A stretch of 52,950 nucleotides of DNA. Source: a virus (taxonomy: Duplodnaviria; Caudoviricetes). Location of the stretch: IMG/VR virus record IMGVR_UViG_3300009008_000050, positions 1 to 52,950 of that record; one strand, 5' to 3'. The first letter of the stretch is position 1. The number at the start of each line of letters is the position of its first letter. Positions 1 through 49,305 of this stretch are shown here, one piece after another. The notes under the pieces were generated by a model. That model saw only the letters and a list, made by a program, of their open reading frames with translations, made no database searches and was not told the origin of the DNA. Made by a program: the position numbers and the translations under genes.

Positions 1-1
1 C

Positions 2-268
2 GTGGCAGTCGCAGAACACCTGGACCAGGAGTATAACCAGGTCCACCTGTTCGAGAAACACGCCCCCCAGGTATCGGGCGGCGTCGACTTCGATGAGGCC
101 ACTGAATTCCGGCTTTATAGCTGGAATGGCCTCGAAGAGTTCCTCAACACCCTCGCCGACCCCGGCGAGGAATACGAGAAGCTCTTCCTCGCGGAGAGAA
201 GGGCCTGTAGCCACAGGCCCGACATCCGCGACCCTCAAGCAACTCGGTTCTTCTCCCGCAGATTTTAA
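2..268 (+). CDS. 3' end of a hypothetical protein (runs off the window start)
   Basis: Open frame to TAA at 266-268, GC-richer than downstream genes, followed by a terminator-like hairpin. Confidence 0.6.
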   Translation: MAVAEHLDQEYNQVHLFEKHAPQVSGGVDFDEATEFRLYSWNGLEEFLNTLADPGEEYEKLFLAERRACSHRPDIRDPQATRFFSRRF

Positions 269-284
269 AAGATCGGCGGGAGAG

Positions 285-316
285 AAAGAAGGCTCACGAC
301 GACGAGTCTTCTTTTT
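285..316 (+). terminator. Rho-independent terminator
   Basis: Stem AAGAAGGCTC/GAGTCTTCTT with an 8-nt loop and T tract, just after the upstream stop. Confidence 0.6.
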
Positions 317-324
317 GTATAAAC

Positions 325-352
325 TTGATAAATGTATAATACAAAGTATAAT
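325..352 (+). promoter_or_regulatory. Sigma70-like promoter
   Basis: TTGATA-N16-TATAAT upstream of RBS AGGAG and ATG 381. Confidence 0.6.
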
Positions 353-380
353 TGTAGTAGACTAAAAGACAGGAGCAATA

Positions 381-1052
381 ATGGAAGAACATCGTTATGT
401 AATAAGAAACCCCGAGAAGCTAGATCAATACGACATTAACACCAATACCGCCGTTGACTTCACTGACTTCTATTTCGGCCCTGGTAGACGTATTAGAGTC
501 TTCCCTAAAGACAAATACCGTGCTCTCTTTATCAAAGGCAAAACCGGGAATAAGATAAAAGAAGTTGTACCACTACGGATGGTAGAGAAGATGATTGACG
601 TAGCCCCACATATTGTGGCAAAAGAGGGCGTGGGGGAATTTATGATAGATGGGGTAAAGGCCTATGCCGAAAAGGTAAACGGCGAGACGCAGGTTGAGAT
701 TGAAGGCCCGCCCCTTTCTCAAATCCCAGATGGCTGGGAAGAGATCGCTGACGTGTATTCGCATACAAAGAAAGATATACAAAAGACAGCCCAAAATATG
801 CAAATAGCAGAATCTGGTGATAATCTTTGGAATTGGGGGTACCAAACCCCAGAGCAGATCCAAATATTCGCAGACGCCAACCCTACATGGAGTGACCCTC
901 GAAACTATCTTAACGTTGGAGACGAGTATACCCTTCCTGGCTTACAATCAACCCAAGAGGAAATAAACCCCCGTGATGCTCTTATAAACAACTATGGTTT
1001 TGAAGTTTATCCGAGTGGGCTTAATGACTATATGCGCGGATTGGTGAGATAA
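381..1052 (+). CDS. Putative virion protein with a C-terminal LysM-like peptidoglycan-binding domain
   Basis: IAESGDNLWN...IFADANPTWSDPRNYLNVGDEYTLP matches the LysM pattern (GDxL...N...DP..L.xG..L.lP) and follows a QKTA motif; RBS AGGAG. Confidence 0.65.
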   Translation: MEEHRYVIRNPEKLDQYDINTNTAVDFTDFYFGPGRRIRVFPKDKYRALFIKGKTGNKIKEVVPLRMVEKMIDVAPHIVAKEGVGEFMIDGVKAYAEKVNGETQVEIEGPPLSQIPDGWEEIADVYSHTKKDIQKTAQNMQIAESGDNLWNWGYQTPEQIQIFADANPTWSDPRNYLNVGDEYTLPGLQSTQEEINPRDALINNYGFEVYPSGLNDYMRGLVR

Positions 1053-1396
1053 TGAATATCACTCCAGGATACGAATATATCCGCCCAGAGCAAGAGATAA
1101 CAACGCCTTCTGGGGAGACCTACGTCATCCCGGCAGACACCATAAGCGCACCGGCTGACACTACTATGACCCACGGTATCATAAAAGGCGGGCCACGCGC
1201 ATACAATTGGGTAGGGGGAGGAGAGAGCGCTTGGGGTGACAATCTTTTTGAAGCTATGAGTACGATATTTGACCGCGGGAGAATGAGGCCCTTCTCGGGA
1301 ATGTATGATACAAACCGAAGGTTTCATGGTGAGCCAGAGGTATTGCCAGCCTTCCCATTTGGTGATTTGTTTGACCCTTATGGTAAGGAAAGGTAA
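1052..1396 (+). CDS. Hypothetical protein
   Basis: TAATG stop/start coupling at both ends. Confidence 0.7.
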   Translation: MNITPGYEYIRPEQEITTPSGETYVIPADTISAPADTTMTHGIIKGGPRAYNWVGGGESAWGDNLFEAMSTIFDRGRMRPFSGMYDTNRRFHGEPEVLPAFPFGDLFDPYGKER

Positions 1397-3261
1397 TGCT
1401 CTCTCAATTACGTAAACTTGTCGCAGGCTCACCACCTCACCCAGAAAAGCCCGGTGTCTTCATTCACTACATCCCCCCGGAGGCTATAGAAGACGTAAAG
1501 CGCGAGGGGTTAAAGGGAGTCGGGCAGTTATACAAAGAAGACCCCGAAGCCTACCTGGAGCGTCTTAAAACATATGCTAGGTTTCAGGATAAAGAAAACC
1601 CAACGCCAGAAGAAATAATAGAGGGCATACGACGATTTAGAGAGCAACCTCATGGTGAGAATGCCATCTTTGGTTATCCACACATGGTTGACTTGGAAAA
1701 GAGCAAGCGGCTCAAAAAGTGGCTAAAGGGCAAAGTCCCCGTTAAAGTAAATGTAGAAGAGGCTATTCTTGCGGGCATTATAGAAGGCGTAGCAGACCTT
1801 AACGCCCCACCTGTGGATTATTCTAAAGTAAAAGACAAGGGTCCTGCTTTAATAGGCATCCCACACCCGATGTTAATACCCAGAACGGGCAGAAACCTTC
1901 CCGATTCGGGTAGAATCCCTTCTAGGTTTTTGGAAATAATGGAGGGCTTTGAGAAACAATCCATGCTTGATGGGATAAGGAAGGTTATGTACCATGGATC
2001 TCCTCGTTTATTAGAGGAGATTAGCCTTAGGGATGAACATGGAGACCCTGACGTCCCGCTTGTTGTATTCGGCACACCTTCGCGTAAGTTCGCTGAGGAG
2101 CTCCGAAAGCTCTATGGGGTCCTAGAGAAGACGGCGGCGTATTCAGAAGGAGGATCATTTACTCACGACGGAGCTCGCTATTCTCTTAGAGAGGCATTCC
2201 GTGTGGCGAACACCAAGCCTACCAGACAGGTACGGGTGGACGACCTCAAGTGGGTATTGGCGTACGACCGCCCAGACCCTAAGAGACTCCGGGCAGCCGA
2301 TCTATCTGCCCCGATACTCGTAGTGCCGGACAGGAGGGGTAGGCCTACAGCGGTGGACGGCCTACATAGACTCTCCAAGGCAGTACGAGAGGGAAGAAGG
2401 ACACTCCCTGCTAAGAAGCTCAGACTGTCTGAACTCACCAAGGTGGCGTCTAGGACATTCACCGACAACGACGTCACCTACGACGTAGAGAAGCTGTGGG
2501 GCACTGAAGGCAAGGTCAGAAGGGTCTCCCCGGACAGGCTCCTGCGAGCAACAGGTAGTACATGGGGGCACGGATCCGGGAAGTATGGCTGGAGGGATGT
2601 GCTGGCTGACCCCAAGAAGTACCCGGGGGAGACGGAGCGCATTAGAGATGCGGACCTTAGATACCCTCTTGCATACCTTGGGGAGAGGTGGGGGGATAGA
2701 GATATAAACCAGAACCTCCATTACTCAGATGACTCAAACGCCCCCGACAGAGAGAGTACCATAACTTTAAGAGAGATGCGCCCCAATGCCTTCGATAGAA
2801 TCTATAAGAACAAGGCCGGATACCTCTATCATCTAGATAGTGATGCCTTCCATGGAACTAATAGAGGCGGTGATGACTATTGGGAGCAAATATCAGAGAA
2901 GCCACTCACCCCTTTAAAGGTGGAAAAGATAGATAATGTTCTCCGCGCCTTAGAAGACGCTGGGGTTGAGATGCTTCCTTATGACAAAGATGAGACTATC
3001 AAAATCATAAAGAGTGAAAGTATTCGCAAGCGCTTGGCGGCGATGACCCCAAAGGCGAGGGCACAGTATATCAGATGGATGTCCGAAGGTGCCCCAGAAG
3101 AACTTCTCTCCACAATTAACTCGTTGAGGGAAATAGAAGAGAGATACGAAGAAAATCTCAAAAAGCAATCCATGTTAGGTGGGATAAGAAAGGTAGCGCA
3201 GTCTGGAAACGCAGACTATCGGGCAGGCGGAGCGAATGCACCCTGGGGAGACGGCTATTAA
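1396..3261 (+). CDS. Mosaic multidomain protein: ADP-ribosyltransferase-like domain(s) plus inserted ParB/Srx-like domains
   Basis: YHGS...VFGTPS (ART-like); ADLSAPILV...VDGLHRL (ParB-like); repeated linker KQSMLxGIRKV; RBS upstream. Confidence 0.6.
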   Translation: MLSQLRKLVAGSPPHPEKPGVFIHYIPPEAIEDVKREGLKGVGQLYKEDPEAYLERLKTYARFQDKENPTPEEIIEGIRRFREQPHGENAIFGYPHMVDLEKSKRLKKWLKGKVPVKVNVEEAILAGIIEGVADLNAPPVDYSKVKDKGPALIGIPHPMLIPRTGRNLPDSGRIPSRFLEIMEGFEKQSMLDGIRKVMYHGSPRLLEEISLRDEHGDPDVPLVVFGTPSRKFAEELRKLYGVLEKTAAYSEGGSFTHDGARYSLREAFRVANTKPTRQVRVDDLKWVLAYDRPDPKRLRAADLSAPILVVPDRRGRPTAVDGLHRLSKAVREGRRTLPAKKLRLSELTKVASRTFTDNDVTYDVEKLWGTEGKVRRVSPDRLLRATGSTWGHGSGKYGWRDVLADPKKYPGETERIRDADLRYPLAYLGERWGDRDINQNLHYSDDSNAPDRESTITLREMRPNAFDRIYKNKAGYLYHLDSDAFHGTNRGGDDYWEQISEKPLTPLKVEKIDNVLRALEDAGVEMLPYDKDETIKIIKSESIRKRLAAMTPKARAQYIRWMSEGAPEELLSTINSLREIEERYEENLKKQSMLGGIRKVAQSGNADYRAGGANAPWGDGY

Positions 3262-3320
3262 TAATTCCGCGAGGAAAACTGAAGTATCTACAATAAGAAA
3301 CGGACAATGGGTTTATAAAT

Positions 3321-6300
3321 ATGAATAACAGCCTATCAAAAGACACCGTCAACAAAATGCTTGATAAAATCGACTCTGTGTACGTACACAAAATGGGTAC
3401 AGAACTAGAAAAAATAGGGAACCCGCTAGGCATTTGGATAGGCGATCAATACCAATTCGATAAAAAAATTGCTGAAGATTATATCTCAATGTTAAATTTA
3501 GTTCGAGGCTATATAGAAAATAATTTTAATGTAGAGGGTGAAACTCGAGATTTAATCATCGAGGATTTTAAATTAGACATCCCAAAAGACTATCCGGACT
3601 ACAAAGGGCAGATACAGGCCAAGCATATGAACGCCACATGGGGCATTCCGATCAAGGTGAAATTCGCACTTAAAGATAAGGCTGGTAAGTCTTTAGACAA
3701 GTCGGGATGGAAGACAATTCTCAACATTCCCCTCCTCACAGGCAGAGGCACATACATAGTCGACGGCCAAGAATACGCCATACGCCGCCAGCTTCGCCTC
3801 CTCCCTGGTGTATATACGGCTAAGACAGCCGAGGGTGTGGGTACGTTTATTAACACGAGTACTAGACAGAATATCAAGATGAGTTTCTCTCCAGACACTT
3901 TAAAGTTTGAGACGAACATTGGTAATCGTAAATTTTCGTTATATCCCGTGTTGTCGGCGCTAGGCGTGCCTGACGATGTAATGCGGAAGACGTGGGGAGA
4001 GAAAGTCTTCTCTGCTAATGCCGAGCGTGGTGCGCATCTCCTTGAGAGTACGGTTGACAGATTGTATAAGACGATGTATGCTTATGGTGAGCCTACGACT
4101 AGTTACCCAGATAAGGTACAGTTAATCCTCGACGCCTTCGAACAGAGTGGTTTAGATGAGTGGTCGACGAAGACTACGCTTGGCAAGCCGTACGATGGTG
4201 TAACTCCTGGGATGTTCATTGACACGACGAAGAAGATGCTTGGGGTGTCTAATGGTACGCTGAAGAGCGACAGGCGTGATGCGCTGTACTTTAGGTCGCT
4301 GTATGGCATTGACGATATGGTTGGGTTTGCTTTAAATAAGTATCAGCAGAAGCTTGACAAAAAAATTCGCTTTAGGCTAGACAATCTTGAGCGTGACGAT
4401 ATAAATTACATTGTATCGCGGCCCATTGCTATGGTTAACAAGGCTGTACTACAGCGGTTTAACCAACACGACCTTGCCTTCTTACCCATACAGGCGAATC
4501 CACTAGATGACTTTAATACGCTTTCCGAAGTTACTTTAATGGGAGAGGGTGGTATTGGGTCTGAGCATTCTATCCCAATCTCATCTAGAGCGCTTGACGA
4601 CTCTAACGTGGGAATGCTCGGGCCTCTTCAAACCCCTGCGAGTTCGAGGGTTGGTGCCAATACACATCTTACTTTAGGTGCGGACAAAGACGGCCCTGAC
4701 ATCATGGGAATGGTTGCCCCAATAGATTCACACGAGATATACCACGCTTCTGCTAGAGAAATGTATGACTTACACATTGCATTACCCGGGGAGTTTAAAA
4801 AAGTTCCAAGCGGGTGGAAGGCTAATAAGTCAAAGGTTCTCGCTGTATATAAGGGTAAGATTGGCAAAGTCCCTGCGGGTAAGATTAAGTACGTCATACC
4901 TAACCATTCGAATATGTTCACATTGTCGAGTAATACTATTCCTTTTTTGAATCACGACGCCCCGACGCGAATGAGCATGGGGACTTCACAGATGGCACAC
5001 TTGGTTAAGCTGAAGAATCCACAGCGCTCGCTTGTACAGAATATAATAGATTACGATGGCAAGAAGCCTATTACGGCCGAGGAGTCGTATTATAAAAAAA
5101 TGAACATACGCTCGCCGTTGCGTGGAGTGGTACAGCGCGTCGAGGCTGACAACATCGTTATAAAGGGGACGAAGGATGGTAAGTTGCACAAGGTTGCTTA
5201 CTATAACAACTTCCCCCTGAATACTACACGAATGATGAATACGACACCTATAGTGAAGAAGGGCGACCGCATACGTGAGGGTGATGTTATCGCGGAGAAC
5301 GGCTTTAGTGATCGTGGTCAGTTAGCAACGGGGCTTAACCTTCACATTGCGTATATGCCGTGGAAGGGGCTTAACTTTCAAGACGGGCTCGTTATATCAG
5401 ACACGGCGGCGAAGAATTTTACATCGTTACACACGTATCAAGAAGAGTATTCGAAGCACCCGAAGGATGTATATAACAAGTCGAAGTTTGTCGCCCATTA
5501 CCCTAACCTATACACTAACAGCCAGCTAAGCAAAATGGATGCCGACGGTATTATTAAAGAGGGTATGCAGATTAATAAAGGCGATCCCCTGGCGTTGAAA
5601 ATAAGCCCTCGCAAGCTTACAGAAGACGATATTCTAAGGGGGCAGATAAGCACGGTATTCAGATCGCCGATGGCTAGAGACGAGAAGACGTGGGAGCATG
5701 AGAATCTCGGCACGGTACATAAGGTAGTCAAGGGGCGAGACTTTATTAAGGTGTACGTTAAGACAGAAGAGATGCTGAGACGGGCTGATAAGCTAAGTGG
5801 ACGTCATGGTCAGAAGGGTGTCGTTGTAGCGGTGCTACCGGACGACGAGATGCCTCGTACCCAAAATGGGGACATTATAGACATTATACAAAATCCCGCC
5901 GCTGTACCTGCTCGAATGAATCTCGGGCAGATACTGGAAACCTCCGCTGGTAAACTCGCCCACCACACTGGCAAGGTGTATAAGGTAGACAACTTCAGAG
6001 ATAACATTACTCCCGAAATCTTATCCAAGCAGCTTAAAGACGCTGGCTTATCTGATCAGGATATGCTATACGACGCCGAGGGTAACGAGATTGGCTCCGT
6101 GTTTACGGGTAGACAGCATTTCTTTAAACTACGTCAACAGGCGGAGAAATACTTTAAGGCGCGTAACCAGAACGACCCCTACGACATTATATCACATAGG
6201 CCGATTAAGGGGCCGAAGATGGGGCCGCTGGGCTTCTACGCAATGCTAGCGCATGGGGCAACTAAGAACCTTAAGGAATTCGCGGGGTTTAAGAGTGAGC

Positions 6301-9300
6301 ATAATGACGACTGGTGGAGGGCTTACGAGACAGGCGCCGCCCTTCCAAGGCCTCAGACAACTTTCGCATTTGATAAACTACAGACATTCTTAAAAGGCGC
6401 CGGCATCAACGTGCGCCAAGAGAAGGACTCTTTAAGGTTACTCCCACTTACAGACAACGATGTAGACAATTTGTCGAGCGGAGAGGTACAGGATCCTTCA
6501 CGGGCGGTTAAAATAGGCGACCCCAACAGGAAGGATTTCCTGAAGCCAATCCCTGGCGGTCTATACGACCAGAAGCTTTTCGGTGGTTTAATGGGAGAGA
6601 AGTGGGGGCACATGAATCTTGCCGAGCCTATCCCTAACCCAATTTTCGAGAGGCCCATTCAAACCCTCTTAGATCTCACGCAGGGTCAATACACTCGTAT
6701 TCTAGACGGCAGGGATGGTGTACTCAAGGGAGAAATCGTCGAGATGACCCCAGAAACTCGTCCTAAGGCCATAACGGGCGGTCCGGCTATAGGAGAGTTA
6801 CTTTCGAAGATAAAGGTCACCAGCGCGCTTAAAGAGCAGGTTGACATTTCTAAGCATACCCGTGGCGACAAGCGTGATAAGGCTGTTAGAAAAATAGGCT
6901 ACCTCAATGGACTCAGGCTCGCTGGGATGAAGCCACAGGATTACATCATCTCTAAGATTCCCGTAATGCCTCCACAGTTCCGTCCGGTATACATGACCGA
7001 ACGTGGAGACATGAGGGTGTCGGACCTTACTGCGCATTATCATGACCTTGGCCGCGTTAACAACCAGATGAAAGATATGCGAGGCTTGCCTACCGAGGTG
7101 ACGGCAAATCTACGCGACGATCTTTATGATACCGTTAAAGCCTTGCAGGGAATTGGCGACCCCAACAATTACGGTCGCGCCAGGGGTGCGGCTGGTATTC
7201 TTAAGTTCATGAAGGGCAAAATACCAGCCAAGGGCCATTTTCAAGATAAGATATTCAGCAAGCGCCAGTCTATAGGTGGGCGTGCCGTGATCATGGTAGA
7301 CCCCGAACTTTCAGTAGACGACGTTGGTGTACCCGAAGAGATGGCGTGGTCGATATTCAAGCCTTTCATAATGAGAAGACTTACTACTGCTGGTATTAAG
7401 CCACTTGACGCAGACAAGATGATAGAGACGAGACACCCGCGGGCTTCTGACGCATTAGACGCAGAGATGGATTATCGGCCCGTAATATTGTCAAGAGACC
7501 CCAAGTTGCACAAGTTTAACTACCTTGCCTTCAATGGGCATCGCATTAAAGACGATGCTCTTCATATCCCGCCTCTTATTACCAAGGGGTTTAATGCGGA
7601 CTTCGATGGCGACGCAATGTCAGTCAACGTTCCTATAATGCCCGACGCGGTTCAAGAGGCGAAGTCAAGGATGCTTGCTAGTCAGAATCTCATCAAGTAC
7701 GGCAAGGATACAATCATAATGGCGCCCGAGAACGAGGCTATCGCTGGTTTATACGCGGGAACGGTAATTAAAGACGACAAGGGAATCGCGTACGGCTCGC
7801 CAGGGGAAGCATTAAGCGCATTTCATCGCGGAGATATAAAACTCACTGATGGTATTTTCGTTGCCAATAAGAAGACTTCGCCTGGCCGCGTAATGCTAAA
7901 CGAACTCTTGCCCGCTGATCTGAGAGACCATTCAAAGCGCTGGGGGAATAGTGATATCCGTGACATGCTTAACTTTGTTGCGCGAAACAACTCTAACGAA
8001 TATGTGCCAATCGTGCAGGGGATAAAAGATCTCGGTGATTTTATGGGGAACAAACTTGCTCTTTCGTTCACACTTAAAGATTTCTTCTCGATGGATAATA
8101 AAGATCTTAGCAGTATAAGTGCGAAAGCAGATAAGTTGGTGGCCATCAGTAATCGCGGCGAGGGTGACTGGACGGGCGACACTTCCTTTATGCCTGCGGA
8201 CTTCGATGCTAAGCTTGACGTAAAACTCAAAGCACACGCAAAGGACTCTACCCTTGGTATGCTTGCGGAGTCTGGCGCGAAGGGTGGCTGGGGAAATATA
8301 AAGCAAATGATATACTCACCCGTATTGATGGCAGACGTTGAGGGTGGCATAATACCTCATGTGATTAAACGTGGCTTCGCACACGGTATGGATCTTGGTG
8401 ATTACTGGACGGCAGCTAAGGGCTCGCGTGCTTCTATATTCGCATCACAGCTTGGTGTACAGGACCCTGGCTTCTTCACGAAGCAACTCCTTAGGGCTAC
8501 GCTTGGTGGCACAATTGCACCTGGTGATTACAACTCTGGGAAAGGTGTAGACTATCCCGTCGATCACCCTACGGTGCTAAACCGCTACCTTGCTAAGAAT
8601 CTCAGAGACAAAAACGGGCATCTCTTGGCCGAGGCTAACGATCTCGTTACGCAAGAGCTTGTAGAAGCCGCTAAGAAGCGTGGGGTTGAGGCAATGACCG
8701 TAAGATCGCCTCTCACATCAGTCGCCTCTCAGGGAATGTATGCGAAGGATTTCGGTAGGCTCCCCGATGGGCAGAAACCCAGAGTGGGTATGGATGCCGG
8801 AGTTATTGCAGCGCATACCCTTACAGAGCCTGCGACTCAGCTTGCTCTGAGATCGTTTCATAGCGCAGGTGCAGTGGGGCAGAATAAGAATGTCAAGGGG
8901 CTCTACTCAATCTGGCCGCTTCTCAATGGCAGGCCACCGACGGGAGCGAAGGCAGTAATGGCGACTAAGCCGGGTACGATTGAAAAGATCCACGGGCTCA
9001 AGACTGGTGGTAGCGATATCACAATGGACGACGGCACCGTATACAAGGCGACTCCGGGGCTTAAACTACACGTCAAGAGTGGTGACACCGTAACCAAAGG
9101 TCAAGCCCTTCAGGATGGATTTATGGATCCCAAGGAAGTCTTACAGTATTTAGGCATGCCCGCATTACAGCAATATCTCGTTGATCAGACTGAGGATAAT
9201 TACGGAAAAAACGCACCCGATCGTAGATATCTAGAAACACTAGTTGCATCTTTGACGAAATACAGTAAAGTAACAGATGTGGGCGAATCATCAGGATTGT

Positions 9301-9587
9301 TGCCTGGGGATATCTTACCAACAGCGCAACTTGAACAGATGAATGCTAATATGAAAGAAGAGCAGGCAAGAATAAAATCACAGCCAATCTTTACGGGGAT
9401 GGATATGTTTACCCCCAAGGTTGAGCAGGACTGGGCAGTTAAAATGATGGGGCGTGATATGATAGGCCAGCTTAGAGAATCCGCAGCAACGGGAGCTCAG
9501 AGTTTTCTTCGCGGGCCGAAACCCGTTTTGCCATTTATCGCAGGCGTTGACTTCGGTAGTCGGATAGACGATTTAGGAGTTTACTAA
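3321..9587 (+). CDS. rpoBC: Phage-encoded fused beta-beta' DNA-directed RNA polymerase (probably virion-packaged)
   Basis: Beta motifs IPFLNHD, AYMPWKGLNFQD, DKLSGRHGQKG and PARMNLGQILE, then beta' motifs PVMPPQFRP, catalytic NADFDGD (7593-7613), SGAKG and trigger loop EPATQLALRSFH, all in one 2088-aa ORF. Confidence 0.96.
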   Translation: MNNSLSKDTVNKMLDKIDSVYVHKMGTELEKIGNPLGIWIGDQYQFDKKIAEDYISMLNLVRGYIENNFNVEGETRDLIIEDFKLDIPKDYPDYKGQIQAKHMNATWGIPIKVKFALKDKAGKSLDKSGWKTILNIPLLTGRGTYIVDGQEYAIRRQLRLLPGVYTAKTAEGVGTFINTSTRQNIKMSFSPDTLKFETNIGNRKFSLYPVLSALGVPDDVMRKTWGEKVFSANAERGAHLLESTVDRLYKTMYAYGEPTTSYPDKVQLILDAFEQSGLDEWSTKTTLGKPYDGVTPGMFIDTTKKMLGVSNGTLKSDRRDALYFRSLYGIDDMVGFALNKYQQKLDKKIRFRLDNLERDDINYIVSRPIAMVNKAVLQRFNQHDLAFLPIQANPLDDFNTLSEVTLMGEGGIGSEHSIPISSRALDDSNVGMLGPLQTPASSRVGANTHLTLGADKDGPDIMGMVAPIDSHEIYHASAREMYDLHIALPGEFKKVPSGWKANKSKVLAVYKGKIGKVPAGKIKYVIPNHSNMFTLSSNTIPFLNHDAPTRMSMGTSQMAHLVKLKNPQRSLVQNIIDYDGKKPITAEESYYKKMNIRSPLRGVVQRVEADNIVIKGTKDGKLHKVAYYNNFPLNTTRMMNTTPIVKKGDRIREGDVIAENGFSDRGQLATGLNLHIAYMPWKGLNFQDGLVISDTAAKNFTSLHTYQEEYSKHPKDVYNKSKFVAHYPNLYTNSQLSKMDADGIIKEGMQINKGDPLALKISPRKLTEDDILRGQISTVFRSPMARDEKTWEHENLGTVHKVVKGRDFIKVYVKTEEMLRRADKLSGRHGQKGVVVAVLPDDEMPRTQNGDIIDIIQNPAAVPARMNLGQILETSAGKLAHHTGKVYKVDNFRDNITPEILSKQLKDAGLSDQDMLYDAEGNEIGSVFTGRQHFFKLRQQAEKYFKARNQNDPYDIISHRPIKGPKMGPLGFYAMLAHGATKNLKEFAGFKSEHNDDWWRAYETGAALPRPQTTFAFDKLQTFLKGAGINVRQEKDSLRLLPLTDNDVDNLSSGEVQDPSRAVKIGDPNRKDFLKPIPGGLYDQKLFGGLMGEKWGHMNLAEPIPNPIFERPIQTLLDLTQGQYTRILDGRDGVLKGEIVEMTPETRPKAITGGPAIGELLSKIKVTSALKEQVDISKHTRGDKRDKAVRKIGYLNGLRLAGMKPQDYIISKIPVMPPQFRPVYMTERGDMRVSDLTAHYHDLGRVNNQMKDMRGLPTEVTANLRDDLYDTVKALQGIGDPNNYGRARGAAGILKFMKGKIPAKGHFQDKIFSKRQSIGGRAVIMVDPELSVDDVGVPEEMAWSIFKPFIMRRLTTAGIKPLDADKMIETRHPRASDALDAEMDYRPVILSRDPKLHKFNYLAFNGHRIKDDALHIPPLITKGFNADFDGDAMSVNVPIMPDAVQEAKSRMLASQNLIKYGKDTIIMAPENEAIAGLYAGTVIKDDKGIAYGSPGEALSAFHRGDIKLTDGIFVANKKTSPGRVMLNELLPADLRDHSKRWGNSDIRDMLNFVARNNSNEYVPIVQGIKDLGDFMGNKLALSFTLKDFFSMDNKDLSSISAKADKLVAISNRGEGDWTGDTSFMPADFDAKLDVKLKAHAKDSTLGMLAESGAKGGWGNIKQMIYSPVLMADVEGGIIPHVIKRGFAHGMDLGDYWTAAKGSRASIFASQLGVQDPGFFTKQLLRATLGGTIAPGDYNSGKGVDYPVDHPTVLNRYLAKNLRDKNGHLLAEANDLVTQELVEAAKKRGVEAMTVRSPLTSVASQGMYAKDFGRLPDGQKPRVGMDAGVIAAHTLTEPATQLALRSFHSAGAVGQNKNVKGLYSIWPLLNGRPPTGAKAVMATKPGTIEKIHGLKTGGSDITMDDGTVYKATPGLKLHVKSGDTVTKGQALQDGFMDPKEVLQYLGMPALQQYLVDQTEDNYGKNAPDRRYLETLVASLTKYSKVTDVGESSGLLPGDILPTAQLEQMNANMKEEQARIKSQPIFTGMDMFTPKVEQDWAVKMMGRDMIGQLRESAATGAQSFLRGPKPVLPFIAGVDFGSRIDDLGVY

Positions 9588-10027
9588 TGACAAAAACGGC
9601 GGCAATACATAATCTTGCACGAGAGGTCGTTAGGCGAGAGATGCATAAGTGTGCAAATACAAATTGGAACAAATGGCCAATCGGTCGCTGGGGTTATTTA
9701 GATTATTTAGATGACCCTACCTTTGATAATGCCGTGCGCGGCGGGTCAAGCCTTGGTGCGCCGATAGGTATCCTTGGGGGTGCAGTCGGAGGGACTGTGG
9801 CTGCCGGCCCGGCAGCGGGAGCTGCTCTCGCTCCGGTGTGGGGCGGCATAGGGGGATTGGTAGGCGGGGTTCTTGGTATGCTTGGGTACCACATAGGTGA
9901 TTGGCTTGCACCGAGCGAAGAAGACTATTATTCTGACGCATATAAAGATTTTCTTAACGAGGGCCCAGACGGGTCTTCGTATAGTTTAAAAAGCAGTGAT
10001 TTAGGCGCCCCAAGGGCGAGGAACTAA
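9587..10027 (+). CDS. Leader-family protein with a glycine-zipper membrane segment
   Basis: N-terminus MTKTAA...VVRREMHKCA; run of GxxxG motifs (GGAVGG...GGIGGLVGGVLG); coupled to the RNAP stop. Confidence 0.75.
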   Translation: MTKTAAIHNLAREVVRREMHKCANTNWNKWPIGRWGYLDYLDDPTFDNAVRGGSSLGAPIGILGGAVGGTVAAGPAAGAALAPVWGGIGGLVGGVLGMLGYHIGDWLAPSEEDYYSDAYKDFLNEGPDGSSYSLKSSDLGAPRARN

Positions 10028-10041
10028 AGAAGGAGAATAGC

Positions 10042-10281
10042 TTGACAAAAAAAGAATTAATAAAACTTGCCGCGGCTCAAGTAGTCAAAAGAGAGCTTGC
10101 AAAAAGCGCCGGAATAAGAGATGCCGTAGCAAGACGCAATGAAATATACGCTAATATGGGCATAATAGAAGCGCCCGCGGATAGCGCCGCGACAGACTCT
10201 CTCTGGGTAGAGCCGGGAGAAAATGCTGACTCTAGCCCATGGAGTTGGTTCACGGACCTTTTTAAAGGGTGGGGGTCATAG
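10042..10281 (+). CDS. Leader-family small protein
   Basis: TTG start with AAGGAG RBS; KKELIKLAAAQVVKRELAKSA leader. Confidence 0.8.
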   Translation: MTKKELIKLAAAQVVKRELAKSAGIRDAVARRNEIYANMGIIEAPADSAATDSLWVEPGENADSSPWSWFTDLFKGWGS

Positions 10282-10286
10282 AGACA

Positions 10287-10700
10287 ATGAATAAAGAAAT
10301 TATAAAATTAGCCGCATCTATTATTGTGAGAAGAGATATGAATAAGACCTCGGGAATTTTTGATATCGATCTTGACTCTTTGGGCCTGTCTGAAGCGTGG
10401 CCCCAAATTAGCGAATTTTGGGAAAGAGCCCAGGGCTGGGAAGGTGGAGAGGAGCTTACGGATATCCCAGCTTCTTCTGACAATATAATTCCAGCAAATT
10501 TATCATGGATGTACAATAGGGTAAATGACGCTTACGGGGACTCTTCTGTTTTTGCTGACAGTGTAGATAAATATATACCAAACTTTTCTGAGGATTACCA
10601 GGACATAAATCTGTGGGACGCTGTTTCTCTTTTAAGAAATAAAGACGTACTAGGCAATTTGTTCTCGCTTGGGGCGCTTGGTGGTTCGGCCAGTGACTAA
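10287..10700 (+). CDS. Leader-family acidic protein
   Basis: MNKEIIKLAASIIVRRDMNKTS leader; start placed at ATG 10287 by alignment with the paralogous leaders. Confidence 0.8.
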   Translation: MNKEIIKLAASIIVRRDMNKTSGIFDIDLDSLGLSEAWPQISEFWERAQGWEGGEELTDIPASSDNIIPANLSWMYNRVNDAYGDSSVFADSVDKYIPNFSEDYQDINLWDAVSLLRNKDVLGNLFSLGALGGSASD

Positions 10701-10729
10701 ATATAGAGAAGTATATTAAGGAGAATAAA

Positions 10730-10840
10730 GTGAACAAACAAGCGGCTTTCGTCGGGTCTTATAGGGCGGGACAGCATAGCGGTAGCCCGGTAGATGCCCC
10801 TTCACAGACCCCTGCTCTCCCAAAGATGCCTTGGCGTTAA
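10730..10840 (+). CDS. 36-aa microprotein (MNKQAAFVGSYRAG...KMPWR), not in the ORF track
   Basis: AAGGAG RBS, GTG start, KQA motif, stop 3 nt before the next ATG. Confidence 0.6.
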   Translation: MNKQAAFVGSYRAGQHSGSPVDAPSQTPALPKMPWR

Positions 10841-10843
10841 TCT

Positions 10844-11647
10844 ATGAACAAAGAGTTTGCCAAACTTGCCGCAGCCGCGATTGTCAGAAACGAACTCTCT
10901 AAATCGAGCGGTATCTTTGACTGGTTTACGAACAACCCAAGTGATTATTATAGCCCTGCCTATGTTGAAAGCTTATTAAATGCAAATGTAGAATCTATGG
11001 ATGGCCTCGGATTACACGCGGGCGAATGGGCTAATCATTATGCAGGATTAGAACAGAAACGTGAAGACCTCCGACCGCGGAGTTATTCTGAGCTGGTCTT
11101 TGGGGAAGGAAACGAAGACGAGTATTCCCTTGGTAGCCCTCATGGCCATAGGCCTCGCCTCCTTATTGAATATGCTTGGGACGAAGAGACCCAGAGCGAT
11201 ATGCCTATATATGGATCATCAGAACACAGGGGGCAGGATTACAGGGCGGGCGTCGGTACTCAATTGTACGCACCCTTTGGTGGGGAGATTACTTCTAGCC
11301 ACCACGATACTGGTGGTGGGGGTAACTTAAGTTTCCTAAGCCCCTTTTATCCTGATGGCAGCCCTAGTGATTTGGCATTTAGCGCAATGCACTTAGCCGA
11401 GCCTACTGGTTATGAAAGAGGGGACGTTGTTGAACCTAGCGACCCTTGGGGCCTAGTCGGGTCAACAGGAAGGTCTAGCGGCCCGCATCTACATGCCGGC
11501 GCTAAGGTTGGCGATGCTTCGGTACATCCAGCTTTTTTAACAAGAAAACTAGATAGACTTTTTGACAAATACGAAGAAATGGGAAGGTATTCCCCATTTA
11601 CAGAAGAAGATTTCGTCAGCGATGACGATTATCTATACTTAAACTAG
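10844..11647 (+). CDS. Leader-family protein with an M23 metallopeptidase (peptidoglycan hydrolase) domain
   Basis: HRGQD (HxxxD), AMHL, GLVGSTGRSSGPHLH (HxH); leader MNKEFAKLAAAAIVRNELSKSS. Confidence 0.88.
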   Translation: MNKEFAKLAAAAIVRNELSKSSGIFDWFTNNPSDYYSPAYVESLLNANVESMDGLGLHAGEWANHYAGLEQKREDLRPRSYSELVFGEGNEDEYSLGSPHGHRPRLLIEYAWDEETQSDMPIYGSSEHRGQDYRAGVGTQLYAPFGGEITSSHHDTGGGGNLSFLSPFYPDGSPSDLAFSAMHLAEPTGYERGDVVEPSDPWGLVGSTGRSSGPHLHAGAKVGDASVHPAFLTRKLDRLFDKYEEMGRYSPFTEEDFVSDDDYLYLN

Positions 11648-11655
11648 GAGATATT

Positions 11656-12300
11656 ATGGGAAGCGTAAAAAGATTTATAAAACAGGCACAGCAACAGATA
11701 CAGCTCCCTCCCCCTCAATATCTAGAATACCCGATGCCTACTCGCCCCCGCGATCGGTGGGAGGAAGAAGCCCCCCCCTTGTCACCGGAAGAGAAGGAAG
11801 AGTCTCCTTATCAAGACCCATGGGTAGAACCCGAGAAGACAAGTTCGTTTACAACAACCCCAGGGCTAGATGTTTTTCTCCCTATATTAAGCGAGATGAT
11901 GGATAGGGCTAACGTTCCAACGATAGGAAACACTAACGTTTACGAGCCCGAAGCGATAAAGTCTATATATAACCTTCTTGCTCCTGGTATTTTAGAAGAC
12001 GAAGGGGTGCAACGAGATTGGATTAATCTCTACAACGCGTACGCCCCCGGGGAAGAAGAGCCTACCTTTGCGGATTCTCTTGAGAACATCTGGCCGGATC
12101 TCAATGTGTTTGATTATTATGGAATAAGCCCGGAGAGTAGATATGCTATTAACGAATATGTGGGCGACCAATTTCAAGCGATTCCTCCCGGCGCGCCAGA
12201 AGAAGCCGTAATAGAAATAGACGACGATTCGGACACGGGGGATGCGGTTATAGAAAAAGGTGGATCTTTCCTTAAACAATTACGTCGGCTAAAGAAGTAA
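11656..12300 (+). CDS. Acidic Pro/Glu-rich putative internal virion protein
   Basis: AGGAG RBS; starts MGSVKRFIKQA, like the 13858 ORF. Confidence 0.75.
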   Translation: MGSVKRFIKQAQQQIQLPPPQYLEYPMPTRPRDRWEEEAPPLSPEEKEESPYQDPWVEPEKTSSFTTTPGLDVFLPILSEMMDRANVPTIGNTNVYEPEAIKSIYNLLAPGILEDEGVQRDWINLYNAYAPGEEEPTFADSLENIWPDLNVFDYYGISPESRYAINEYVGDQFQAIPPGAPEEAVIEIDDDSDTGDAVIEKGGSFLKQLRRLKK

Positions 12301-12301
12301 T

Positions 12302-12329
12302 TTGCATATTATTTGCAAACGCGTATTAT
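12302..12329 (+). promoter_or_regulatory. Sigma70-like promoter
   Basis: TTGCAT-N16-TATTAT in an intergenic gap. Confidence 0.45.
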
Positions 12330-12358
12330 ATAGTTAGGAAAACCATTTAAGGAGAATT

Positions 12359-13075
12359 ATGGAAAGAAAAGAAATAATAAAGCTTGCGGCAGCCTTGGTT
12401 ATAAAAGCCGCTCAATCTGCGGCCGACGATCCCGATTCGGGCGCGGGGACGTATGAAGCGGATATAGCTCAATTAGAAGAAGAAATCATTCAGATAGGAA
12501 ATAGTCAACAGGAAGATGCTAACCTCGCTGCGACCCGAAGGGCTTTAGAGAATGCGACCATACTTCAAGAAGAAATAGATGCCGAGAAAGCAAGAATAGC
12601 CGCGGAAGAGGCTGCACGGCAGGCGTGGGAGGATGAAACTTTTTCTTCCCCAGAATACTACGCTCTTCAGCAAGAAGCCCTAGACCATACGCGTAATACC
12701 ATGAACCAAGAGTACGCAGTCCCTAGCGTTATGGATATTATAAACCAAAACGTCAAGGGGGGTGATTGGGACACACAGAGTGGATTGGAATCCATTGGTG
12801 AATGGGCAGGAACGGTAGGCTTACCAGTAGCAGCAGCGGCACTAATAGCAACGTTGCCAGGATTAGGTGGAACGTATACCCTAGGCAGCCACTTAGGGGC
12901 AATGCCAGCACTTAGTAGTATAAACGCGGGTCTCCTCGGCGCCGGCGGAAATCTCACCGGAATCGGTAAGGGTATAGGTTGGTTATGGGGCGAAGGTGGC
13001 CCTGACCTGTGGCATGGTAATTATATAGACTACGCCGACATACAAGGTTGGCTTGACAAAGAAGATTTATTATAA
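12359..13075 (+). CDS. Leader-family protein with a coiled coil and hydrophobic Gly/Ala-rich segments
   Basis: AAGGAG RBS; MERKEIIKLAAALVIKAA. Confidence 0.8.
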   Translation: MERKEIIKLAAALVIKAAQSAADDPDSGAGTYEADIAQLEEEIIQIGNSQQEDANLAATRRALENATILQEEIDAEKARIAAEEAARQAWEDETFSSPEYYALQQEALDHTRNTMNQEYAVPSVMDIINQNVKGGDWDTQSGLESIGEWAGTVGLPVAAAALIATLPGLGGTYTLGSHLGAMPALSSINAGLLGAGGNLTGIGKGIGWLWGEGGPDLWHGNYIDYADIQGWLDKEDLL

Positions 13076-13092
13076 TAACGAAAGGACACGAA

Positions 13093-13824: not shown

Positions 13825-13857
13825 AAATAACTATAAACATAAGAAAGGACGCTAACA

Positions 13858-14532: not shown

Positions 14533-14536
14533 ACTC

Positions 14537-14565
14537 TTGCTTTTAATCTTGGGTGTGTGTATAAT
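14537..14565 (+). promoter_or_regulatory. Sigma70-like promoter for the tail module
   Basis: TTGCTT-N17-TATAAT upstream of RBS and ATG 14601. Confidence 0.6.
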
Positions 14566-14600
14566 ACTTTCGTAGACAAATACTAACGAAAGGAATACAC

Positions 14601-15400: not shown

Positions 15401-15403
15401 CAG

Positions 15404-15431
15404 TTGAAGAATAAGAATTCTATCGTATAAT
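15404..15431 (+). promoter_or_regulatory. Sigma70-like promoter
   Basis: TTGAAG-N16-TATAAT upstream of ATG 15453. Confidence 0.5.
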
Positions 15432-15452
15432 TAACATAGCGAAAGGATTTTT

Positions 15453-38342: not shown

Positions 38343-38343
38343 T

Positions 38344-39054: not shown

Positions 39055-39055
39055 A

Positions 39056-46629: not shown

Positions 46630-47249
46630 AAAGTATTTTAACCCTATTAGTTAATACCGAAAGCACGCCTGCACAGCTCCTCGCTGCAATGAATGAAGCG
46701 TTTGGCGAGGGTTGGCTTAAGTGGGAGCCGGCAACGATTAGGGCTGAATTAGAAGATATTGGCTTTGATTTTAACACGCTTCCCAGGGGTTCGTGGGACA
46801 AACTAATGGCAACCAAGGCTGCCTTTATGAACAACGCCCCCTGGAAGGACTGGACGGCTTTTCTCACCTTCGCACAGGCGATGAATAATTACCAGGTAGA
46901 CTTTAATGTCGCCAGGGTATGCTCGCCGGCGGAGGCTGCGTGGACAGTTGAGTGCTTAAAGCTAATTCGCCCCGACGAGAAGTTTTCTCGCGAGGTGCAG
47001 GCGATGATAGGGTCAATTTTTCTTAGCAATGGTATTGTAGTTCCCCCGGCGGGATTAGAGCTCGTTAAAGATGAGATGAAAGAAATGCAAGACAAGACAA
47101 TGGCTATGGATGAATTTACAAAAATAGCTGAAGAGCGTTATACTCTACATAGAAGTCAGAGCACCGCGCCCGAGGGCGACTCTGCATTAGATATACACAC
47201 AACGAAACTCTTAGCAATAGATGAATATATAAGGAGCAAGAATGGCTGA
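46626..47249 (+). CDS. Hypothetical protein
   Basis: Overlap-coupled to both neighbours. Confidence 0.75.
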   Translation: MKSILTLLVNTESTPAQLLAAMNEAFGEGWLKWEPATIRAELEDIGFDFNTLPRGSWDKLMATKAAFMNNAPWKDWTAFLTFAQAMNNYQVDFNVARVCSPAEAAWTVECLKLIRPDEKFSREVQAMIGSIFLSNGIVVPPAGLELVKDEMKEMQDKTMAMDEFTKIAEERYTLHRSQSTAPEGDSALDIHTTKLLAIDEYIRSKNG

Positions 47250-49305
47250 TGGCAGTAATTTTGAGACTAGTACCAATTATAATCTAATCGCATCCGGGGA
47301 CAATCCCTTTCTTGACATTAGCCAACTTTACTTCCCTCGCAATATAAAAGACGCCTTCCCGCTTGCGCGTACTATATTCTATACCAATGGTTTAGTACGG
47401 CAGGCTATAAAAAAATTAGCAGAGTATTCAATTACCGACCTTGAGTTTATCGCCCCCGAAGAAGGCTCTGGCATGCGCAAGGAAGAAATACAAAATGTAT
47501 ACAAGCGTATATTCTCGAAGCAATTAGATATAAAGAAATTCCTTATCTCTGTCGGACTCGATTACTTCGTATACGGCAACGCCTTCGTGTCGATCTACTT
47601 CCCATTTAAAAGAATGCTTACCTGCAAGAGTTGTGAAGAACAGATGCCGCTTTCGCTAAACGAGATTGCAGACTGGGAATACACTGATAAGGGTTATCGT
47701 GGCACCTGCCCGCGTTGTAAGAAAAAGGTAGAGTTTACCGCACAGGATAAAACTATACAGCAAGAAGACAGAATGCGTCTTATTCGCTGGAATCCCGAGA
47801 ACATCGACATAGAATATTATCCCTTTAGCGGCGAGAGAATCTATACATACGATCCCCCTGAAGAGATTCGCGCCAAGATACTAGGTGGCGACAAAGAGGC
47901 TATACTTCGCACGCCTACGCTTATTCTCAATGTAATCAAAGACGATAAAGTAGTAAAACTCAACCCACACGATCTCTTTCACTTCGTTGCGGAAAGCCCG
48001 ACTGATGAACAACAGGCCTGGGGTAAGGCTTTAATTATATGTGCGTTTAAAAACATTTTCTACGCATCCGTACTGCGTAAGGGCGCTGAGGCAATTGCGC
48101 TCGATCACATTATCCCCCTTCGAGTGCTTTTCCCACAGATCACGGGCTCTGAGGGCTTCCACTCGACTAGCGTAAGGCTTAGCAAAATAGAAAGCAAGCT
48201 GCGCTATGAGTTCACCGAGTGGAGGAAAGATAAAAACCGTGTTATCATTTCTCCTTTCCCCATGGGTATGCAATTCCTGGGCGGCCAAGGGCGTGGTCTT
48301 CTCCCCACGCCAGAGATTCAACAGGCGACTGAAGAAATCTTCCTTTCTCTAGGCTTACCCCAGGGATTGCTCATGGGTAGCGCACCGTGGGCTGCCAATA
48401 GCATCGCGATGCGTATTGTAGAGAATGCCTTCCTTACATATCGCAATCAATTACAGACAATTCTCGACTTCGTAAAAGACAGACTTAGAGACTACCTAGA
48501 CCTCCCTGACTGTACCGTACGGATGAAAGAATTTAAAATGATGGACGACGTACAATATAAGCAGCTTATGATGGGCCTTGCACAGGGTAGATTGATTTCT
48601 AAGCGTAGATTGCTTGAGATGTTTAACATCGATTACGAAGAGGAAATGGGCATTGTGCGCGACGAAATGAAAGATGAATCCATCTTCCAGGCAGAAGCAC
48701 AGGGCGAGATGATTAAAATCCAAGCCGGTATGCAGGATGAAATACAGGCATCACAGTCAGCGTCTATGATGGAACAGCAGAGCTCGCAAATGGAAGAGGT
48801 GGCTGAAAACTTCCTCTCAATTACGCAAAAATTCATTGACTCAGGCTGGCCTATGGATCAAGCTATTGGTATTGTTAATAACGTTATGCAACAGCAGATG
48901 TATATGCAAATGCAGCAGGCCGAGAAAGCCAAGGCAGACCAGGCAAGAGCCCTCTTTATGCAGGATCGTATGGCGTCTACCGGATGGAGCCTTGCAAGGG
49001 CACAGAGGCAGCTTAAGATGTTCGATGTTATGGATCAGTTTAACCCCGCGCCGACCCCGCAACAGTTCCAGGACGAAGGGCAATATGTTAATAGCCTCGT
49101 AAGTTATCTAATGCAACTCCCTGGCGACCAACGAGAAGCTCAGCTAAATAGTATTAAGAATAAAGACATCGCCTTCTTCGAACGCCTCGTAAATTACCTC
49201 AATGGTATGGGGATGAATGTAGGCGCACAGGATGGCGGAGGAACGAATAATAATATTAATCCATTACCGCAGGATAATGCACCCAGACGACAAGGATATA
49301 AATGA
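47242..49305 (+). CDS. Probable portal protein with a zinc-ribbon insertion and Gln/Met-rich C-terminus
   Basis: NGLVRQAIKKLAEY, LDYFVYGNAFV and LFHF...WG motifs typical of portals; CKSC...CPRC. Confidence 0.65.
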   Translation: MADGSNFETSTNYNLIASGDNPFLDISQLYFPRNIKDAFPLARTIFYTNGLVRQAIKKLAEYSITDLEFIAPEEGSGMRKEEIQNVYKRIFSKQLDIKKFLISVGLDYFVYGNAFVSIYFPFKRMLTCKSCEEQMPLSLNEIADWEYTDKGYRGTCPRCKKKVEFTAQDKTIQQEDRMRLIRWNPENIDIEYYPFSGERIYTYDPPEEIRAKILGGDKEAILRTPTLILNVIKDDKVVKLNPHDLFHFVAESPTDEQQAWGKALIICAFKNIFYASVLRKGAEAIALDHIIPLRVLFPQITGSEGFHSTSVRLSKIESKLRYEFTEWRKDKNRVIISPFPMGMQFLGGQGRGLLPTPEIQQATEEIFLSLGLPQGLLMGSAPWAANSIAMRIVENAFLTYRNQLQTILDFVKDRLRDYLDLPDCTVRMKEFKMMDDVQYKQLMMGLAQGRLISKRRLLEMFNIDYEEEMGIVRDEMKDESIFQAEAQGEMIKIQAGMQDEIQASQSASMMEQQSSQMEEVAENFLSITQKFIDSGWPMDQAIGIVNNVMQQQMYMQMQQAEKAKADQARALFMQDRMASTGWSLARAQRQLKMFDVMDQFNPAPTPQQFQDEGQYVNSLVSYLMQLPGDQREAQLNSIKNKDIAFFERLVNYLNGMGMNVGAQDGGGTNNNINPLPQDNAPRRQGYK

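Follow-up and report, generated by a model that had tools for sequence, protein, structure and literature searches.

A cysteine-free, single-chain β–β′ RNA polymerase encoded in a tailed-phage genome and its possible delivery with a phage sigma factor

The IMG/VR virus record IMGVR_UViG_3300009008_000050 (Duplodnaviria; Caudoviricetes) is a stretch of 52,950 nucleotides, the whole of which was analysed and is called the window here. Bacterial RNA polymerase (RNAP) is taught as an α2ββ′ω assembly with two structural zinc sites in β′. On the plus strand of the window, one open reading frame (ORF) encodes a bacterial-type β and β′ in a single chain of 2088 residues that holds no cysteine and neither of the zinc sites (Table 1). 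The window represents part of the genome of a tailed phage; besides the RNAP gene it holds genes for a portal protein, a baseplate J protein, an amidase, sigma factors and many glycosyltransferases, and the record is classed as virus.

The polymerase gene and its anatomy

An initial annotation, made from the sequence without database searches, had described the gene product as a bacterial-type β–β′ enzyme in one chain, free of cysteine and with both zinc sites lost, and the ORF, the Pfam and PDB matches and the alignments all agree with this description. The reading frame contains no TGY codon, while the two remaining frames of this strand contain 56 and 75, and 20.1 cysteines would be expected at the rate of the rest of the window where none is observed (Poisson P(0)=1.9e-9). 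Pfam matches above the cut-off are Rpb2_6 (aa 600-964, 3.6e-56, 191 bits against a cut-off of 23.4), Rpb1_2 (aa 1384-1451, 66 bits against 25.3) and Rpb1_5 (aa 1821-1858, 47 bits against 28.5); Rpb2_3 and Rpb1_1 both fall under their Pfam cut-offs on this protein. A phmmer search of PDB sequences matched the β′ chain 8i23_D at 2.3e-97 (query 1149-2011) and the β chain 8i23_C at 5.3e-72 (query 296-1051).

AlphaFold2 (AF2) modelled the β module with a predicted local distance difference test score (pLDDT) of 82.5 and a predicted template modelling score (pTM) of 0.77, and the β′ module with a pLDDT of 82.9 and a pTM of 0.75. The top Foldseek matches were bacterial β chains for the former model (TMq 0.72-0.76, E down to 7e-72) and bacterial β′ for the latter (TMq 0.82-0.89), and both half models were nearest to compact Firmicute and cyanobacterial forms. 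As modelled, the overall fold is that of bacterial β and β′, including the bridge helix, trigger loop and clamp helices; the alignment likewise retains these three elements together with the catalytic loop and a slightly shortened flap tip. The β catalytic-barrel motif SGRHGQKG is present at aa 826, and 85 columns are invariant in an alignment of 33 homologues. From the kept motifs, the invariant columns and the models, we predict that the RNAP is a catalytically competent two-barrel enzyme of the bacterial type. Sub-threshold Pfam matches to Peptidase_M23, Biotin_lipoyl and RnfC_N were also seen at aa 595-678 and 1905-1930, which most likely reflect the barrel-sandwich hybrid folds of β and β′ rather than extra domains.

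The direct run of β into β′, already read from the sequence, was located at a junction that is kept in 33 of 33 intein-free fused homologues aligned, and that corresponds to the C-terminus of β followed by the N-terminus of β′ from residue 18 on. The proposed deletion of the β′ N-terminal zinc domain was borne out as well: in an alignment with Salmonella β′ and four other cellular β′ sequences, the 32 residues 68-99 of the Salmonella protein, with C70, C72, C85 and C88, have no counterpart in the RNAP, and at the scar GGLYDQKLFGGLMG joins directly to EKWGHMNLAEP. All seven phage-family rows of this alignment share the deletion, and the CxC...CxxC zinc-ribbon motif is found in none of 64 plain fused representatives of the family (see below). 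At the second zinc site, the context VRSPLT...G.YAKDFGR is retained and the cysteines are gone, as had been claimed, the four ligand columns being occupied by Y, S, Y and D. Both the scar and the former second site are modelled at a pLDDT of about 90.

The chain is short by comparison with Salmonella β plus β′ (1342+1407 aa), and on this ground it had been called streamlined. Absent from it are the enterobacterial β segments listed in Table 1 and four parts of β′, namely the zinc ribbon (68-99), residues 158-175 and 963-1153, and the C-terminal tail (1368-1407). We take the large absent segments to be lineage-specific insertions of E. coli, so the length difference is real but mostly due to the lack of enterobacterial insertions rather than to a trimmed core. 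The N-terminal extension ending in ELEKIG also exists, but this ending is unconserved, as the extension is common only to P0002 (82% identical to the RNAP) among the 33 aligned homologues, and it differs from the leader of the genes downstream that is described below.

Table 1. Features of the polymerase gene and of other loci in the window
Feature	Residues	Positions	Strand	Basis or remark
Single-chain β–β′ RNAP gene	2088 aa	3321..9587	+	One ATG-to-stop ORF, 0 Cys
β module	aa 1-1036	3321..6428	+	Without E. coli β 221-354, 932-1036, 1126-1179
N-terminal extension, ends ...ELEKIG	aa 1-45	3321..3455	+	Unconserved; pLDDT 32-57
β/β′ junction GINVRQEKDSLRLLPL	aa 1028-1043	6402..6449	+	Conserved 33/33
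β′ module	aa 1037-2088	6429..9584	+	AF2 model and Foldseek matches to bacterial β′
Scar of deleted β′ zinc ribbon	aa 1079-1103	6555..6629	+	Salmonella β′ 68-99 without counterpart
β′ clamp helices, predicted sigma-docking surface	aa ~1223-1267	6987..7121	+	Cellular alignment; complex-model interface
NADFDGD catalytic Mg2+ loop	aa 1425-1431	7593..7613	+	D1427, D1429, D1431 invariant in 33 sequences
Place of first second-zinc-site ligand	Y1737	8529..8531	+	Aligned with E. coli C814
Second-zinc-site remnant VRSPLTSVASQGMYAKDFGR		8700..8759	+	S1800, Y1807, D1810 for C888, C895, C898
Block of 14 same-strand ORFs including RNAP	5772 aa	381..18473	+	1 Cys (0.017%)
Cys-free protein directly upstream of RNAP	621 aa	1396-3261	+	PHROG 17560 (unknown function) at aa 249-349
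Six small ORFs with common N-terminal leader	leader ~25 aa	9587..13824	+	Starts 9587, 10042, 10287, 10844, 12359, 13093
M23 peptidase domain ORF, one of the six leader ORFs		10844-11647	+	Pfam M23 1.3e-9
Cys-free protein, probable tape measure	1006 aa	15453..18473	+	Placed relative to sigma and baseplate-J genes as Arash gp4 (1097 aa, 0 Cys)
Cys-free sigma-70-family factor	238 aa	23437..24153	+	Orthologue of Arash Gp10, 33% identity, 1.4e-21
Portal protein		47242..49305	+	29% identity to Arash portal gp204, 1.8e-82
Second phage sigma factor	278 aa	49507..50343	+	4 Cys; Sigma70_r2 2e-11, r4 2.8e-13; PHROG 351 1.1e-45

The phage family and its cysteine content

With a query built from the family alignment, a relative of the RNAP was found to be encoded in 620 of 709 candidate stretches of IMG/VR; a query of the same database with the single protein found no relative. 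When 1.84 billion representatives were scanned with HMMER, 2007 matched at E<=1e-30, and the best 150 of these 2007 (50%-identity representatives), all at E<=3e-127, comprise 64 plain fusions (1950-2200 aa), 57 longer chains (>2200 aa) and 29 shorter ones. In a collection of 5.8 billion proteins, the phage-type homologues (P0002-P0049) are 29-82% identical to the RNAP over most of its length, whereas the best cellular β′ matches reach 25-28% identity over 31-43% of the query. Similarly, in one alignment the phage sequences are 24-31% identical to any cellular β′, against 48-59% among cellular β′ across phyla. A FastTree phylogeny (33 phage and 13 cellular rows) placed a single long branch between phage and cellular sequences with support 100, and a quick IQ-TREE run (31 phage and 10 cellular rows, two long-branch phage and three near-duplicate cellular rows having been dropped) gave the same split with the same support; the length of this branch was 0.94-1.12 in the two trees, in both of which the cellular sample was small and mostly from Bacteroidota. 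The phylogenetic check that the initial annotation had called for therefore places the RNAP outside cellular RpoB/RpoC and, judged by sequence comparison, it belongs to a large phage-only family and was not recently acquired from a cell.

This family is probably the published mReC RNAP lineage, the link being a metagenome number common to two loci, as two of the related loci come from IMG metagenome 3300017989, which is also the source of two named examples in PMC7481178. Cultured relatives are 29-31% identical over 70-89% of the query; they include the Vibrio phages D181, D148 and D69 (29% identity, 89% coverage) and the Salmonella phage Arash (OQ632216; 31% identity). Arash and the Vibrio phages have two proteins in place of the one chain, of 1525-1527 aa and 606-609 aa, with the break falling after about aa 1523. 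Many of the homologous RNAP genes have been invaded by mobile elements (for example P0005, P0011, P0012, P0022, P0031, P0035 and P0036): the long homologues among P0002-P0049 often carry the intein or homing-endonuclease Pfam domains PF14528, PF14890 and PF05204, and in Vibrio phage D181 (L004) an annotated homing endonuclease gene interrupts that of the RNAP.

In this family cysteine has been eliminated almost everywhere except at the second zinc site, where most members keep the four structural ligands. Among the 33 aligned homologues, 15 have cysteine at all four second-site columns and at most one elsewhere, one has C-C-C-D, and seventeen have 0-1 cysteine in total. The 64 plain fused representatives most often hold 4 (32 sequences) or 5 (13), followed by 0 (6), 6 (6), 1 (2), 8 (2), 3 (1), 9 (1) and 13 (1); their overall cysteine frequency is 0.207%, and the second-site motif is kept in 55 of them. 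Salmonella β and β′ together have 22 cysteines. At the IMG/VR loci the RNAPs contain 0.173% cysteine against 1.196% in neighbouring ORFs, a count that covers the 37 of 77 loci with a distinct intein-free fused ORF, after one duplicate and 39 loci without such an ORF (interrupted, split, truncated or with a motif variant) had been dropped. The close homologues have 0-1 cysteine outside inteins and are thus not rich in it; cysteine-rich close homologues had been named in advance as a finding that would speak against the proposal.

The sequences in the zero-cysteine state fall into two clades, both well supported (14 and 3 rows), in which the second-site residues are replaced by x-(S/T)-Y-D and P-D-S-S, respectively. 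A single origin of this state was considered and set aside: FastTree joins the two low-cysteine clades as sisters with support 96, but IQ-TREE does not resolve the backbone and the replacement residues differ. For these reasons two independent losses of the second-site cysteines are favoured without certainty; such a repeated loss would point to selection rather than drift.

Genes for α and ω were sought in three IMG/VR records (CheckV 90-100% complete) and in the complete genomes of Arash and D69. The α models PF01000 and PF01193 matched in none of these five complete or near-complete relatives, and the ω model PF01192 gave no match above the cut-off in them and one sub-threshold match (E=0.028); in control genomes these searches gave matches in 14 of 14. 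All five relatives have exactly one Rpb2_6 gene. The earlier remark that no α gene is visible in the window is correct, and weak when taken alone because the record is just a 52,950-bp contig, so it is the relatives that give it weight. To judge from these sequences, the fusion, the zinc-ribbon deletion and the absence of α and ω genes are family-wide. As β and β′ form one polypeptide, the fusion would take over the assembly role of the α dimer, and the covalent link would be the obvious substitute for the α platform.

Sigma factors, the cysteine-free block and the case for a virion enzyme

Two sigma factors are encoded in the window (Table 1), and the cysteine-free one is the predicted partner of the RNAP. 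Its profile matches SigA in the PDB at 6e-10, 8 of 8 homologues are free of cysteine, and outside the gene block described below it is, with a 156-aa protein, the only cysteine-free ORF product longer than 150 aa. A complex of this sigma factor with the first 480 residues of the β′ module was predicted from our own alignments and scored 0.78, against 0.01 for the best of three controls. The mark applied to such scores is reached by 58 of 80 solved complexes and by 2 of 110 mismatched pairs, counts that hold only roughly here because our own alignments were used. At least 60% of contacts are common to the runs, the partner has a pLDDT of at least 74, and the modelled interface places sigma residues 23-63 on β′-module residues 187-231 (aa 1223-1267), which is the canonical contact between region 2 and the clamp helices. 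The model supports sigma binding, with the qualification that sigma–β′ complexes have been solved many times, so that its pass may reflect likeness or memory only.

The RNAP gene lies in a block of 14 ORFs that is almost devoid of cysteine. The 26 other ORFs of the window have 100 cysteines in 10,386 aa (0.96%), at which rate 55.6 would be expected in the block (Poisson P(<=1)=4e-23), and its sole cysteine is residue 22 of ORF 9587-10027. Several proteins of the block have Gly-rich membrane-like segments, and the block also includes a peptidoglycan peptidase with an M23 domain. The 1006-aa protein at the end of the block is probably the tape measure, as suggested by its synteny with Arash gp4 and by Atlas leads of 0.84-0.85; it has no Pfam or PHROG match. 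For the 621-aa protein directly upstream of the RNAP there are weak Atlas leads only, ParB/Srx-like under the bar and ART-PolyVal "polyvalent" injected proteins at 0.84. Synteny with Arash had made this protein a candidate portal, which was ruled out by the portal homologue found elsewhere in the window.

Six small ORFs downstream of the RNAP share a leader of the type K-E-(I/F)-I-K-L-A-A-A-x-I-V-R-x-E-(L/M), which may be a capsid-targeting peptide or a propeptide cleaved after Glu. A hidden Markov model of the leader, run in a six-frame scan of the window, matches only these six ORFs (next best E=4.1) and does not match the RNAP N-terminus, and the idea that the N-terminal extension with ELEKIG is a packaging signal was dropped. 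In a promoter and terminator scan of positions 1-19000, 41 promoter-like sites were found against 24.5 expected, with no interpretable pattern; the best site, at 325-352 (TTGATA-16-TATAAT), is a strong match to a sigma-70-like promoter and lies upstream of the block. ORFs 11656 and 13858 begin alike with MGSVKR. In addition, two cysteine-free ORFs contain in-frame tandem repeats, one at 13725-13810 (33 nt x 2.6, peptide ...NAWDATKEFGS...) and one at 13930-14095 (27 nt x 4.1, peptide AYANEMYKR, 98% matches). Farther along the window, a low-GC island at 38001-42000 (32.6-34.5% against about 45% elsewhere) carries glycosyltransferase, sulfotransferase and rhamnosyltransferase genes within a longer glycosyltransferase run at 38260-45508; lateral transfer may have brought it in as a module that modifies the surface or the DNA.

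Published work on two other phage groups bears on where such an enzyme acts. In the Arash virion preparation, as reported, the β homologue Gp206 gave the most spectra (3516, 100% coverage), Gp216 gave 1210 spectra, and the sigma factor Gp10 was detected with 100% coverage (PMC10585845). The ejected polymerases N4 gp50 and DEV gp71 have no cysteine, gp71 homologues contain 0.00075% against 0.865% in the proteomes, and the suppression is described as conserved across the ejection operon of Schitoviridae; the same source refers to a suggestion that cysteine is disfavoured in proteins that cross the periplasm, where disulfide catalysts are present (PMC11445570).

We propose, with a probability of roughly 0.6, that the RNAP and the cysteine-free sigma factor are carried in the virion and injected as a holoenzyme. 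The enzyme would be built into the particle together with this sigma factor, both would enter the host with the DNA, and the injected enzyme would transcribe the first phage genes from sigma-type promoters without the host polymerase. The absence of cysteine and of zinc sites would then most likely be owed to this carriage in the particle and entry alongside the DNA: proteins held in an oxidising particle and crossing the periplasm would have to avoid disulfides and to unfold and refold without metal. By analogy, the cysteine purge, including removal of the second zinc site, would be the same adaptation as in the virion RNAPs of the N4 type. The initial annotation had suggested a virion RNAP threaded through the tail, for which the Arash proteome, the N4-type cysteine rule and the cysteine-free block and sigma factor give indirect support; packaging, ejection and threading, the dependence on sigma, the role in early genes and the reason for cysteine loss are inferred. 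A fuller version of the proposal, to which we give slightly less than even odds, is that a complete, bacterial-type, sigma-dependent holoenzyme, consisting of a single-chain core without α, zinc or cysteine and a cysteine-free sigma factor, is injected by a myovirus-like particle in convergence with the N4 virion RNAP but on the cellular two-barrel scaffold, and that selection against cysteine deleted one zinc domain in the common ancestor and erased the second twice independently; a working bacterial-type RNAP would then be shown to need neither zinc site.

Several observations weigh against virion delivery. The virion evidence comes from the Arash homologues only and from a preparation of moderate purity, made by sucrose gradient and pelleting, whose 116 "structural" proteins include ribonucleotide reductase, kinases and helicases, and the Arash authors name as another explanation that abundant proteins were carried over (PMC10585845). 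Spectral counts above that of the capsid protein are hard to reconcile with a few packaged copies. Ordinary Arash virion proteins are also poor in cysteine (major capsid protein 0/307, tail 0/283, gp229 2/2548), so the signal indicates "virion" rather than specifically "ejected". In nine relatives' loci that were inspected, the genes flanking the RNAP have normal cysteine contents, and the 18-kb block is thus particular to this phage; within this block, the RNAP lacks the leader common to the six ORFs downstream. The second-site cysteines are also missing from two of the five cellular β′ sequences aligned (P0050 and P0090, which both retain the N-terminal zinc ribbon), so that the site is dispensable in some cellular lineages too and its loss here, real as it is, is not unique by itself. 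Packaging is moreover not needed to explain the existence of the RNAP. The Arash cysteine counts cover 72 genes, the stretch 50-118 kb being left out; among the highly detected proteins, gp4 (0/1097) and the "helicase" gp217 (0/472), whose gene adjoins that of the C-terminal half of β′, are free of cysteine, in contrast to the terminase (13/532) and the ribonucleotide reductase alpha subunit (11/764).

These points feed the chief rival explanation, namely that the enzyme is not a virion protein, is made after infection to transcribe middle or late genes with phage sigma factors, and lacks cysteine for another cause, such as tolerance of oxidative or thiol-reactive conditions, immunity to phage attack on the zinc sites of host RNAP, or drift after the sites became dispensable. 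With one RNAP gene per genome in all five relatives, the enzyme must work in the cell anyway and, should the phage do without the host RNAP, must also act later in infection; many of the Arash proteins detected are plainly non-structural, and the normal flanking genes and missing leader fit this explanation as well. We nevertheless regard it as the less likely of the two. Extreme depletion of cysteine runs through the whole family (0.17-0.21% against about 1.2%), only the second-site ligands were kept and these were lost at least once and probably twice, a pattern published for ejected proteins of the N4 type; in addition, the partner sigma factor and its seven homologues are free of cysteine whereas the second sigma factor has 4, and the gene lies, together with that of a peptidoglycan peptidase, in a block with one cysteine in 5772 aa.

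Two further alternatives concern the nature of the enzyme. The single chain might recruit the host α dimer, and perhaps ω, after entry or synthesis, which would suit an overall fold that is that of bacterial β and β′, and the failure to find a phage α in the relatives is equally consistent with borrowing from the host. We think this improbable: the hosts are diverse (Salmonella, Vibrio and those of many environmental contigs) and yet identity to the cellular subunits is only 24-31%, the β′ C-terminal tail (E. coli 1368-1407) is missing, RNAPs of the phiKZ and AR9 types are reported to function without α and ω, and the covalent link would take away the chief reason for having an assembly platform. 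Recent capture of a cellular rpoBC, as an auxiliary gene from the host or through contamination with a bacterial fragment, would account for the clear Pfam and PDB matches to bacterial β and β′, but the low identity and partial coverage of the best cellular matches in 5.8 billion proteins, the separate long branch of the family, and the portal, baseplate, amidase and sigma genes of a window classed as virus refute it, and we give it next to no credence.

Part of this picture is already in print, namely the lineage (from metagenomes, 2020), the virion detection in one isolate (2023) and the cysteine rule for N4-type ejection proteins (2024). The single chain as the norm of the family, the family-wide zinc-ribbon deletion, the reduction of cysteine to four second-site ligands that were repeatedly lost, and the link to a cysteine-free sigma factor and gene block appear to be undescribed; in the parts of the literature that our search covered, which included PMC12153180 and PMC7824862, no description of the fusion, the zinc losses or the cysteine purge in this lineage was found. 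The RNAP is a natural bacterial-type enzyme of 2088 residues without α, ω, zinc ligands or cysteine, of a kind conserved across hundreds of sequence clusters, and it could serve as a minimal, easily expressed and redox-insensitive model for core assembly and folding and for the purpose of the zinc sites. If it is indeed injected with its own sigma factor, phage-borne transcription would have a second independent route that uses the cellular type of polymerase. The rule of no cysteine in ejected proteins would then reach beyond N4-like podoviruses and take in a large lineage of phages of 150-200 kb, most of them uncultured, and would provide a simple sequence criterion for predicting proteins that leave the particle.

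Comparison with known polymerases

Natural covalent β–β′ fusions in the same order are known from Helicobacter and Wolbachia; these cellular RpoBC proteins are about 2,900 aa long, keep both zinc sites and many cysteines, and work with α2 and ω. Among phages, the crAss-like gp66-type RNAP is a single-chain two-barrel enzyme. According to PMC7481178, the crAss enzyme cannot be matched to the models COG0085 and COG0086 at all, whereas the present RNAP matches Rpb2_6 at 3.6e-56.

The RNAPs of the mReC (multi-subunit-RNAP-encoding Caudovirales) in the same paper, by Weinheimer and Aylward, resemble the present family in that their β and β′ are readily aligned to COG0085 and COG0086, carry the NADxDGD motif and form a clade apart from Bacteria; the contigs range from tens of kb to about 200 kb and hold hallmark genes of Caudovirales. 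In contrast, β and β′ are treated there as two subunits; "cysteine", "zinc", "virion", "sigma" and "alpha subunit" are absent from the main text of PMC7481178, where "fused" and "fusion" refer to crAssphage only.

Gp206 and Gp216 of Arash and the proteins of Vibrio phages D69, D148 and D181 belong to the same family and share the junction and the zinc-ribbon deletion in the alignment of family members; Arash also has the orthologous cysteine-free sigma Gp10, and both Arash and D69 are without α and ω. They differ in that the chain is divided into β with the N-terminal half of β′ and a separate C-terminal half of β′, and in that the four second-site cysteines are kept (4/606, 4/609). There the RNAP gene follows the portal gene, whereas here the portal gene is 38 kb away.

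In its proposed working, the RNAP is closest to N4 gp50 and DEV gp71, each reported as a giant single polypeptide that is carried in the virion, ejected and free of cysteine along with its ejection operon; these have a T7-like single-subunit fold, use no sigma factor and share no sequence similarity with the RNAP, and are functional analogues only. The phiKZ and AR9 RNAPs are likewise two-barrel enzymes of phages without α and ω, and one set of them is reported to be packaged in the virion, but they consist of 4-5 very divergent polypeptides and use no sigma-70 factor. By comparison, the present RNAP is a single chain that is easily aligned to the bacterial subunits and is accompanied by genes of the sigma-70 family.

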